Shown here piece after piece: positions 16,898 to 17,980 of a stretch of DNA of 32,000 nt. Location: positions 960,001 through 992,000 of the forward strand of contig NZ_CP026606.1 of assembly GCF_002945325.1 (NCBI RefSeq), given 5' to 3'. The notes beneath the pieces are model-generated. The model worked only from the letters and a program-made list of their open reading frames with translations. It had not been told where the DNA came from and did no database searches. Position 1 is the stretch's first letter. The number at the start of each line of letters is the position of its first letter. Origin of the DNA: Methanococcus maripaludis (lineage in GTDB: Archaea > AGJL01 > Methanococci > Methanococcales > Methanococcaceae). The translations under genes and the position numbers were made by a program.

Positions 16898-17980
16898 CTA
16901 TCCAAAAATTAAAAATCCATTGAAAATTTCCGTACGCTTTTTCAAGTTTATATCTTTAAAATTATTAATTTCAAAAAATATATCTTTAAAACTAACATTT
17001 GATTGAACTATGTCTAAAGCTGTTTTTTTATCAATATCTAGTTTAAAAAGGATATTTTTATTAACCTTTCTTTTTTTAATAATATTCAATCCAACAAGTT
17101 CATTTAAGTAATTATAAACTGTTGAAGAACTGTATTCTAACATGCCAGCTATTTCCTTGATATTGAATTTTTTTAACAGGAATATTTTTTGGACAATATT
17201 TTTGTATTTTTTAGGCAGAACTTCTGGAATTATTTTTTTCCAGTTTATTTTTAAATCTCGCATATTTTTAAGGTCTCTTTTTGAATTAGCAAGTATCAAA
17301 TCAATTATTTTTAAATTTCCACAACTTATTTTCAAAAGTTCTTCTGAAACTTTTTCTGATATCAAATGGCCTTTATTTTTTGCATAATATATTACTGCAG
17401 CAACACTGTTTGTTTTATGGTTATCAAAATTATTTTTTAAATACGAATAAGCTTCAAAAGGACACCTTAAAACAATACTTATTCCTTCATTTTTCAAAAA
17501 TTGAATAAACCTATTATATGTTTTCAAGTGATTCCATTTTGAAACATCGTGAAGGTCAAATACCAAAATCGGGTTTAAAACTTTCAAAATAGTTATTAAT
17601 TTACCCATTACTTTTTTAAAGTTCCAGTTATTAACATCCTCAAATAAATCTCCAATTACCCTATACCATGCTTTTTTGGCCCTGTAATAATTATTAACGG
17701 ATTTATCAAAATAGACATCGTTTAAATACTTAAAAATATTATCCATCCCTTTAATTTCGAAATTATTTTTAAAAAGGGTCATTTTATCTTTTAAAACGTG
17801 CAAAATGTTCAAAACAGTCTTTTTTAATGACGGACTTCCTAAAACCCTTAAAATTGGAATATCATTGATTATTTTACAATTTCCAACAACATCTGATTCC
17901 AAAACAGAGCTCCTGCTAACAGGCTGAATCCAGATATCATTTGTTGCATAAATTTCGGGTTTATTGTAAATAATTTCCAT
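16898..17980 (-). CDS. Degenerate AAA+-like protein with a C-terminal wHTH (possible inactive Orc1/Cdc6 paralogue)
   Basis: About 360 aa, very N/K/I-rich. Motifs seen:
- P-loop-like GSPSLKKT, lacking the GK[ST] lysine context
- Walker-B-like ILVFDLHD
- SCGNLKIIDLILAN at the position of the Orc GDARKAIDLL box, with the arginine lost
- wHTH IKEIAGMLEYSSSTVYNYLNELVGLNIIKK

The tracked start at 17989 is GTG. The ATG at 17980, preceded by gtga, is preferred. It lies within 15 bp of the MCM stop. Confidence 0.55.
   Translation of the reverse strand: MEIIYNKPEIYATNDIWIQPVSRSSVLESDVVGNCKIINDIPILRVLGSPSLKKTVLNILHVLKDKMTLFKNNFEIKGMDNIFKYLNDVYFDKSVNNYYRAKKAWYRVIGDLFEDVNNWNFKKVMGKLITILKVLNPILVFDLHDVSKWNHLKTYNRFIQFLKNEGISIVLRCPFEAYSYLKNNFDNHKTNSVAAVIYYAKNKGHLISEKVSEELLKISCGNLKIIDLILANSKRDLKNMRDLKINWKKIIPEVLPKKYKNIVQKIFLLKKFNIKEIAGMLEYSSSTVYNYLNELVGLNIIKKRKVNKNILFKLDIDKKTALDIVQSNVSFKDIFFEINNFKDINLKKRTEIFNGFLIFG

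Follow-up and report, generated by a model that had tools for sequence, protein, structure and literature searches.

Putative initiator proteins in Methanococcales and related systems

To our knowledge, the Methanococcales were long thought to be devoid of Orc1/Cdc6, and only a divergent protein, Mc-pRIP, has been proposed as their initiator. Here we describe gene X, a member of the MJ0772 family, which lies on the minus strand between the genes for the helicase MCM and for Mc-pRIP in a stretch of 32,000 nt from Methanococcus maripaludis (RefSeq assembly GCF_002945325.1, contig NZ_CP026606.1, positions 960,001 to 992,000 of the forward strand); this whole stretch is the window to which all coordinates refer unless a retrieved locus (L003 and the like) is named. 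Replication initiation in this order has been called 'an intriguing unknown' in a review, and experimental mapping of a Methanococcales origin is lacking (PMC3984812). Mc-pRIP has been described as the Cdc6-like putative initiator of the order (PMC4009838; bioRxiv 10.64898/2026.08.15.744077), and Ori-Finder places the Methanococcales oriC next to it (PMC4009838). Both the Mc-pRIP gene and the adjacent predicted oriC are already published; judged by the searched literature, the new elements here are the MJ0772/MMP0031 family itself, its architecture, its order-wide attachment to a repeat-bounded spacer and a 173-aa partner protein. No mention of MJ0772, MJ0773 or MMP0031-33 was found in the searchable literature.

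The gene X protein can be compared with several described systems. In Orc1/Cdc6 (e.g. A. pernix ORC1, PDB 2V1U) an alpha/beta NTPase-like domain is followed by a helical lid and, at the C-terminus, a winged helix; the predicted gene X protein shows the same succession, its gene, too, neighbours a predicted origin and the gene for a replicative helicase, and ORC1 is among the top three structural matches of the full-length model. Unlike in Orc1/Cdc6, the motifs of gene X are degenerate, its N-terminal 245 residues show no detectable sequence or profile similarity, its winged helix-turn-helix (wHTH) is of the ArsR/TrmB type without a Cdc6_C match, and the ORC1 match itself is weak (Foldseek E 2e-3, probability 0.98, template modelling (TM) score ~0.18). 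Mc-pRIP (MJ0774 family; 13910..15136, minus strand) shares with gene X the order-wide distribution, the locus (~1.8 kb away) and an alignable linker and wHTH; in contrast to gene X, it has an intact Walker A (GTKGIGKS) and Walker B (DEAD), matches AAA_16, ATPase_2 and TIGR02928, and is better conserved (68-99%, as compared to 41-66% for gene X). Eukaryotic Orc2/Orc3 also combine a degenerate nucleotide-binding fold with a following winged helix, and the best Foldseek matches of gene X include Orc2 of yeast and of Drosophila; the proposed role as non-catalytic partner of an active Orc1/Cdc6-like subunit would be common to both, by analogy only. We know of no archaeal heteromeric origin recognition complex (ORC) with a dedicated dead subunit.

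Two classes of winged-helix proteins complete the comparison. WhiP, the initiator of Sulfolobus oriC3, is a lineage-specific non-ATPase whose gene lies beside the origin at which it acts (PMC5333045). It is Cdt1-like and, unlike gene X, has two domains of the winged-helix type but lacks an NTPase-like one; the two were not found to be related in sequence. Regulators of the ArsR/TrmB/Csa3 type match the C-terminal 60-90 residues of gene X (sub-threshold to weakly significant), but they usually measure ~100-200 aa, and their N-terminal domain, e.g. CARF in Csa3, is not a 245-residue NTPase-like plus lid module; ArsR/SmtB proteins in particular are small (~100-aa) dimeric wHTH proteins with sites for metal sensing, as opposed to the 360-aa gene X protein.

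Gene X and its predicted architecture

Gene X (16898..17980) is a real gene, and it is conserved throughout the order. It runs from ATG 17978-17980 to TAG 16898-16900 and encodes 360 aa, in agreement with the length given in the initial annotation of the window; an alternative GTG start at 17989, three codons upstream, would yield 363 aa. The product is 96% identical to CAF29587.1/Q6M186 of M. maripaludis S2, and the M. jannaschii orthologue is MJ0772, entered in the databases as 'Uncharacterized protein MJ0772'. Because of the accession order, gene X is probably MMP0031, the neighbouring gene for the 173-aa protein MMP0032 and the Cdc6-like Mc-pRIP gene MMP0033. A word-indexed search of 5.8e9 proteins returned 22 relatives of the gene X product, all from Methanococcales, and a second search with the M. 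infernus member as seed added those of M. jannaschii, M. fervens, M. lauensis, M. indicus and others. When 1.84e9 representative proteins were searched exhaustively with an HMMER profile, seven matches fell below 1e-10; all organism-named ones belong to Methanococcales and the remainder are unnamed metagenomic sequences. Outside the order no relative was found among these 1.84e9 proteins, the weaker matches being generic wHTH proteins. A scan of genome contigs with family patterns yielded two loci only and added little. The initial annotation had tied its proposal to the gene being kept in other Methanococcales, and indeed orthologues occur in every genus examined (Methanococcus, Methanothermococcus, Methanotorris and Methanocaldococcus). 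More than 25 positions of their alignment are invariant; conservation is most striking in the helix NYYRAKKAWYRxIGDLF, in SKWN behind the Walker-B-like strand, in RCPxE and in the GN of the lid.

The architecture was predicted with AlphaFold2 from a 16-sequence alignment. The full-length model has a mean predicted local distance difference test score (pLDDT) of 82.5 and a predicted TM-score of 0.76; the N-terminal 246 residues were also modelled alone (pLDDT 83.9), which excluded the wHTH from the structure search. Three parts can be distinguished in the models, all encoded on the minus strand: an N-terminal alpha/beta domain with a P-loop-NTPase-like fold according to AlphaFold and Foldseek (residues 1-190, 17411..17980), a helical lid-like segment (residues 192-245, 17246..17407) and a C-terminal wHTH (residues 257-316, 17033..17212). 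The predicted chain starts with two N-terminal strands, strand 41-48, the SPS loop, helix 52-63 and a helical insertion of ~70 residues, continues with strand 138-143 (ending at D142), a helix, strand 168-174 (IVLRCP), a second helix and a short strand, and ends with three helices within residues 192-231 (192-202, 209-219 and 223-231), the winged helix (~257-316), two helices and a disordered tail. The helical insertion carries the strongly conserved basic/aromatic helix named above, with YYRAKKAWYR (residues 98-107) located before the Walker-B-like strand.

When the full-length model was compared with the PDB by Foldseek, the best matches were S. cerevisiae Orc2 (two entries, E 1.7e-3) and A. 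pernix ORC1, together with Apaf-1 and Drosophila Orc2. When the N-terminal domain was compared by itself, P-loop NTPases made up nearly all of the best 50 matches, among them RecF, RuvB, CED-4, RdrA, PtuA, ABC ATPases, TnsC, DnaA domain III and RFC. These matches are weak (E at least 9e-3, TM-score at most 0.37), and the best TM-scores belong to the AAA+/STAND proteins RdrA, TnsC and CED-4. In a viral structure library the best TM-score (0.42, TMq) was obtained for a haloviral 'plasmid replication protein'. From the models, a P-loop-NTPase-like fold with a lid is likely, and AAA+/STAND is our best guess for its type. The initial annotation had read the protein as a series of AAA+ landmarks in their usual order; their placement fits a P-loop NTPase in the AlphaFold model, but they find no statistical support as landmarks of AAA+ or Orc proteins in particular.

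All three motifs quoted in that annotation are present in the protein, and each sits at a P-loop NTPase position in the model: GSPSLKKT at residues 48-55 (17816..17839), FDLHD at residues 141-145 within the strand ILVFDLHD (residues 138-145, 17546..17569), and CGNLKIIDLILA at residues 220-231 (17288-17323) within the lid-like segment. GSPSLKKT forms a degenerate Walker-A-like loop that leads from strand 41-48 into helix 52-63, whose first turn holds K54-T55, a P-loop-like placement. It departs from the Walker A consensus GxxxxGK[ST] in that the second glycine, before the lysine, is missing in all members of the family, which show the variants PSLKRT, PSIYKT, PSIFKT, PNLKKN, PSVSKM and PNLKKA; K54 is replaced by R in C5-type M. 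maripaludis strains, and T55 by N in M. infernus, M in M. voltae and A in M. jannaschii. The Walker-B-like sequence (ILVFDL-HD against hhhhDE) lacks the acidic pair, D142 being never followed by an acidic residue and itself replaced by E, G or N in some orthologues. The sensor-2 arginine of the GDAR-type box, earlier noted as lost, is not conserved as a basic residue: the family has GNL[KRNE], with K, R, N or E at this position. Degeneracy of the three motifs is thus a feature of the whole family, and the would-be catalytic positions are among the less conserved ones, whereas other surfaces are invariant. The earlier statement that the catalytic residues are replaced applies to the Walker A glycine and the Walker B acidic pair, but not to K54-T55, which the window protein retains. 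The family has no conserved catalytic residues. Since orthologues differ from one another at the Walker A, Walker B and sensor-2 positions, ATP hydrolysis is unlikely, and, judged by its sequence, the N-terminal domain is almost certainly not an ATPase.

The C-terminal wHTH proposed in the initial annotation was recovered by several methods. Sub-threshold to weak Pfam matches cover it in 10 of 16 family members; HTH_5 (PF01022) is matched by 8 of the 16 (best E 1e-5), the window protein reaches 15.7 bits where the cut-off stands at 22, and two homologues carry a precomputed PF01022 assignment. In hhalign, the linker and wHTH of gene X align with those of Mc-pRIP (E 1e-5, probability 82%, 22% identity), and Foldseek returns many ArsR/MarR matches for this domain. 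Scans of gene X and its orthologues with Pfam, NCBIfam, PHROGs and PADLOC gave matches in the wHTH region only, and hmmsearch of the family profile against PDB sequences gave sub-threshold wHTH matches only. None of TIGR02928, AAA_16/AAA_22, Cdc6_lid and Cdc6_C was reported by Pfam or NCBIfam for gene X or the 16 scanned members. At the three-helix segment, Pfam Hda_lid was found sub-threshold in three members, where it covers positions 4-62 of the 65-position model; the two members checked individually had E 1.3e-3 and 0.011. Because full-length hhalign aligned the C-terminal region only (probability 0.2% for the N-terminal domains), we rejected gene X as a recent duplicate of Mc-pRIP. The Mc-pRIP profile in turn did not reach the solved Orc1/Cdc6 structures in the PDB, so that no bridge leads from gene X to these structures through Mc-pRIP. 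A specific descent of gene X from Orc/Cdc6 is therefore not demonstrated, and the designation as Orc paralogue, as originally given, is unproven: only the wHTH aligns with Mc-pRIP, and the structural matches to ORC proteins stay at E ~2e-3 with TM-scores of ~0.2.

Gene order and AT-rich spacers around gene X

The durable linkage of gene X is to an AT-rich spacer, the gene for the 173-aa protein and Mc-pRIP, not to mcm. One gene order is shared by M. vannielii, M. aeolicus, Methanothermococcus okinawensis and Methanotorris formicicus: GATase_3, mcm and X come first, then a long spacer and, on the opposite strand, a 172-174-aa gene, and after a second long spacer Mc-pRIP, GTP cyclohydrolase, ATP-grasp, TFE-alpha and HD. 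M. jannaschii (MJ0771-MJ0775) and another Methanocaldococcus have the block from X to Mc-pRIP intact with a 175-aa gene and no mcm nearby; there the upstream gene is a TP_methylase that overlaps the start of gene X. On the M. infernus contig, X, the spacer and a 176-aa gene are kept and Mc-pRIP is not alongside. Integrase genes flank the Methanocaldococcus version of the locus, and Methanotorris has the mcm-X arrangement; an ancestral island of mcm, X, origin and Mc-pRIP may be considered.

In the window, the core syntenic mcm copy (17996..20014, minus strand; Pfam MCM E 4e-73) ends with TAA 17996-17998, 15 nt from the ATG of gene X, a distance that the initial annotation gave correctly. The intervening 15 nt (17981..17995) contain a partial Shine-Dalgarno sequence (GTGA) and are too short for a promoter plus leader. 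The claim of that annotation of an operon with mcm is accordingly plausible for this genome in terms of co-transcription, but it does not hold in general: adjacency to mcm is lost in Methanocaldococcus, and the mcm-X gap in other genera ranges from 4 to 121 nt with TATA-like sequences in the longer gaps, so that operon membership is not universal. By synteny, the window copy corresponds to McmA (MMP0030), the one mcm copy reported to be essential (PMC3984812). The listed mcm reading frame (17996-20086, minus strand) starts at TTG and would give 696 aa; since orthologues measure 672-678 aa, the likely start is ATG 20014 (MDDKQIQ..., 672 aa).

The gene for the 173-aa protein (15747..16268, plus strand), the MJ0773 counterpart by gene order, is conserved across the order and always convergent with gene X. 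The protein combines an N-terminal wHTH with a C-terminal WWCxxC...CxH zinc-finger-like motif. Its wHTH has weak Csa3/ArsR-type matches, and the WWCxxC...CxH motif is invariant and resembles a SWIM or zinc-ribbon finger. With 35-52% identity, this gene is the fastest-evolving one of the locus.

An AT-rich core flanked by inverted repeats and phased iterons beside an initiator gene is the usual anatomy of archaeal origins, and such a layout here is in line with the Ori-Finder placement of oriC beside Mc-pRIP (PMC4009838). Both spacers of the locus are long (483-854 bp, 13-25% G+C in all genera). The one on which gene X and the 173-aa gene converge with their 3' ends (16269..16897) measures 629 bp with 16% G+C in the window and 483-756 bp with 13-25% G+C in every genus. 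It is bounded by an inverted pair of a ~33-bp element (16666-16698, minus; 16339-16371, plus) with the consensus TTTCGrGTTTTCGAG-N4-ATGTATrTATAgG, referred to below as TTTCGAGTTTTCGAG-ATGTATGTATA elements. Both copies were found in 9 of 9 species examined, and the 18-copy alignment has 11 invariant columns. Going by sequence features, 16269..16897 is a candidate for an unwinding region with origin recognition boxes on either side.

The spacer between the 173-aa gene and Mc-pRIP (15137..15746; 610 bp, 14% G+C) contains five exact copies of ATTGTGAATATA (15251-15262, 15281-15292, 15437-15448, 15467-15478 and 15649-15660), compared to 0.53 expected by chance. Two pairs have a 30-nt spacing, and the pairs lie 186 nt apart. 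The distances of these sites from the start of the 173-aa gene are kept from Methanococcus to M. jannaschii, where, as in M. aeolicus, the site occurs as the variant TGATTCAyAAT. An additional TTTCGG-TTTTCGAA core copy (15211-15226, minus strand) is located just upstream of the TATA-like box CTTATAAAAAAG of Mc-pRIP; the core copy lies ~75-90 nt before the Mc-pRIP start codon, and the same arrangement is found in M. vannielii and M. jannaschii. This copy may be an autoregulatory site. No RNA family was found by Rfam in either spacer.

Further copies of the core were observed elsewhere. In most genera, another TTTCGAGTTTTCGAG core copy overlaps the last codons of gene X (L003:9054-9071, L004:8294-8318, L005:9102-9125, L011:11011-11035 and L013:~7035-7062). 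It is read in different frames (FRVFG* or FEFSS..*), which points to conservation at the DNA level, so that the C-terminal 'peptide' largely reflects a DNA constraint; in M. maripaludis this copy has decayed (GGATTTTTAATTTTTGGATAG, ~16898-16918). At 28545-28561 (plus strand), a core copy (TTTTCGAGTTTTCGGG, then TAGCATATAC) is found within the 58 nt that separate the 5S rRNA gene from that for RNase P RNA. In the ~200 kb of Methanococcales DNA examined, no other copy stands outside the origin region; this one may be a terminator or promoter element. The TTTCGAGTTTTCGAG elements could also be mere U-tract terminators, since they stand on the sense strand downstream of gene X, the 173-aa gene and 5S rRNA, but termination accounts neither for the copy upstream of Mc-pRIP nor for the conserved ATGTATGTATA extension.

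Possible functions of the gene X protein

The reading we favour, if only tentatively, is that the gene X product is a non-catalytic, origin-associated DNA-binding accessory factor of Orc/Cdc6-like architecture that serves Mc-pRIP and MCM. Gene X would then be part of a replication-origin module specific to Methanococcales. Its C-terminal wHTH would bind repeats belonging to one of the two conserved classes that the neighbouring AT-rich spacers contain, and its N-terminal domain, having lost ATP hydrolysis, would act as a scaffold for protein-protein or DNA contacts, with the invariant YYRAKKAWYR helix at the place that the initiator-specific motif takes in initiators; equivalence of this helix to the DNA-contacting motif is something we can only infer. 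The protein might thereby assist or modulate the ATP-competent Mc-pRIP in origin recognition or in the recruitment of the co-encoded MCM, a situation that would resemble that of the ATPase-dead Orc2/Orc3 within the ORC of eukaryotes, or of WhiP, which binds an origin in Sulfolobus without being an ATPase. That the protein binds the origin, that it interacts with Mc-pRIP or MCM and that it affects initiation in any way are points that we infer only. In other words, the MJ0772/MMP0031 family appears to have the shape of an initiator without its chemistry, and its gene is the one most persistently attached to the candidate origin DNA. Should the accessory role prove true, archaea too would be able to combine active and inactive AAA+-like subunits in an initiator; otherwise, gene X is simply a lineage-specific regulator beside the origin. 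We consider it rather improbable that the arrangement goes as far as a heteromeric ORC-like assembly, in which Mc-pRIP, a dead Orc-shaped MJ0772/MMP0031 subunit and possibly the 173-aa protein would act together on an origin bounded by inverted TTTCGAGTTTTCGAG-ATGTATGTATA elements; it would represent an independently evolved archaeal parallel to the way in which eukaryotes divide the work between active and dead ORC subunits. In the genetically tractable M. maripaludis, two proteins and two classes of conserved DNA elements with exact coordinates provide a handle on this gap in archaeal replication.

Several observations weigh against an accessory replication factor. Gene X diverges faster than its neighbours: identity to the window copy is 41-66% across species, as compared to 67-82% for MCM (three species with mcm adjacent) and 69-92% for Mc-pRIP, and gene X is more AT-rich, with 25% G+C versus 32-33% for the replication neighbours. 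Pfam, NCBIfam, PHROGs, PADLOC and hmmsearch against all PDB sequences find nothing before residue ~225, and hhalign, run locally and globally on the N-terminal domain profiles of gene X and Mc-pRIP, gave the probability of 0.2% mentioned above. The best full-length Foldseek matches are borderline (E ~2e-3, TM-scores ~0.2), and the E-values for Hda_lid overlap with those of plainly spurious matches in the same tables. Structure prediction, which the initial annotation had proposed as a check, did provide a P-loop-NTPase-like model, but its matches are weak (E ~2e-3 to 9e-3, TM-scores 0.14-0.42) and mix AAA+/STAND with ABC/RecF types; we therefore claim no specific NTPase class. Non-replication genes downstream (GTP cyclohydrolase, ATP-grasp, TFE-alpha and HD) are equally syntenic, which makes gene order alone weak evidence. 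Finally, gene X is interrupted in some lineages. In Methanocaldococcus sp. GCA_024278985.1 an in-frame stop follows ...ILKHCKR (L011:10001-11035), and M. villosus has a +1 frameshift ~20 residues later in two independent assemblies (L009:6327-7351 and L010:1411-2435); both lesions lie in the linker between lid and wHTH with the downstream reading frame intact and could reflect a gene that is split, one that has recently become a pseudogene, or an error of sequencing. A Methanotorris-like contig from a metagenome has the N-terminal 187 residues of gene X joined in frame, after ...GCAAAAAAGTTATT, to the C-terminal catalytic half of a tyrosine recombinase (L014:2161-3469), with mcm preceding the fused gene and an AlpA/HTH_17 gene following; this looks like an SSV-type integrative element in gene X or a chimeric assembly. 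Stop, frameshift and integrase junction argue against essentiality everywhere, including the role of an essential loader or initiator, and an accessory role is more likely than an essential one. Alternatively, the two halves of the protein may work as separate polypeptides.

Some of these observations would fit an ordinary local transcription factor, our main rival explanation, which we regard as somewhat unlikely. Here, gene X would join an ArsR/TrmB/Csa3-like wHTH to an alpha/beta sensor or oligomerisation domain and regulate mcm, the 173-aa gene and Mc-pRIP without a direct part in initiation. All statistically detectable similarity is indeed to wHTH regulators (ArsR, TrmB, Lrs14, Sta1, Csa3/CasR and the SoFic C-terminal domain), the databases label the protein as ArsR-family or HTH regulator, the TTTCGG-TTTTCGAA core just upstream of the Mc-pRIP TATA-like box resembles an operator, and the gene evolves fast and is apparently dispensable in some lineages. 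A protein of 360 aa with a 245-residue NTPase-like and lid half is, however, unlike typical ArsR proteins, neither CARF nor another known sensor fold appeared among the N-terminal structural matches, and a repeat-bounded, AT-rich stretch on which 3' ends converge, tightly linked to the gene across the order, is unlike an operator region. The low G+C content of gene X and the 173-aa gene (25-27% versus 30-34% for neighbours) would also suit a domesticated or decaying remnant of a mobile element, i.e. a plasmid or viral replication or partition protein that came with mcm and has little or no present role in replication. Methanococcales mcm copies are often found on integrated elements (PMC5333045, PMC3984812), the top TM-score in the viral library is that of the haloviral protein, and integrases occur both near the M. 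jannaschii locus and, as a fragment, at the junction in the metagenomic contig. We nevertheless think such an origin of the gene improbable to a marked degree, given that it occupies the same chromosomal position in all genera beside a syntenic core mcm copy, is intact in most genomes with its more than 25 invariant residues, and that PHROGs has no match to the N-terminal domain. Least credible of all is an active NTPase with a deviant P-loop that works as second initiator or helicase loader: the placement of K54-T55 in the first helical turn after strand 41-48 and of D142 at the end of the Walker-B-like strand would allow for it, but no member has the glycine before the lysine, C5-type strains carry Arg in place of the lysine, the Thr has given way to N, M and A in M. 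infernus, M. voltae and M. jannaschii, some members show G or N instead of D142, and neither an acidic pair nor a conserved sensor-2 arginine is present.

Two minor observations may be added. Inside gene X of M. aeolicus (L005:8552-8567, minus) and of a Methanothermococcus species (L008:6549-6564, minus), the DNA that encodes the conserved peptide FENSKIN is exactly the TTTTCGAGTTTTCGAA core in reverse complement, an overlap that may be a coincidence; the integrase junction of the Methanotorris-like contig falls at the FENSKIN-equivalent position of gene X. The rRNA operon (16S, tRNA, 23S, 5S) and the RNase P RNA gene (23690-28819, plus strand) are located ~6 kb from the candidate origin, on the strand opposite to mcm, gene X and Mc-pRIP.

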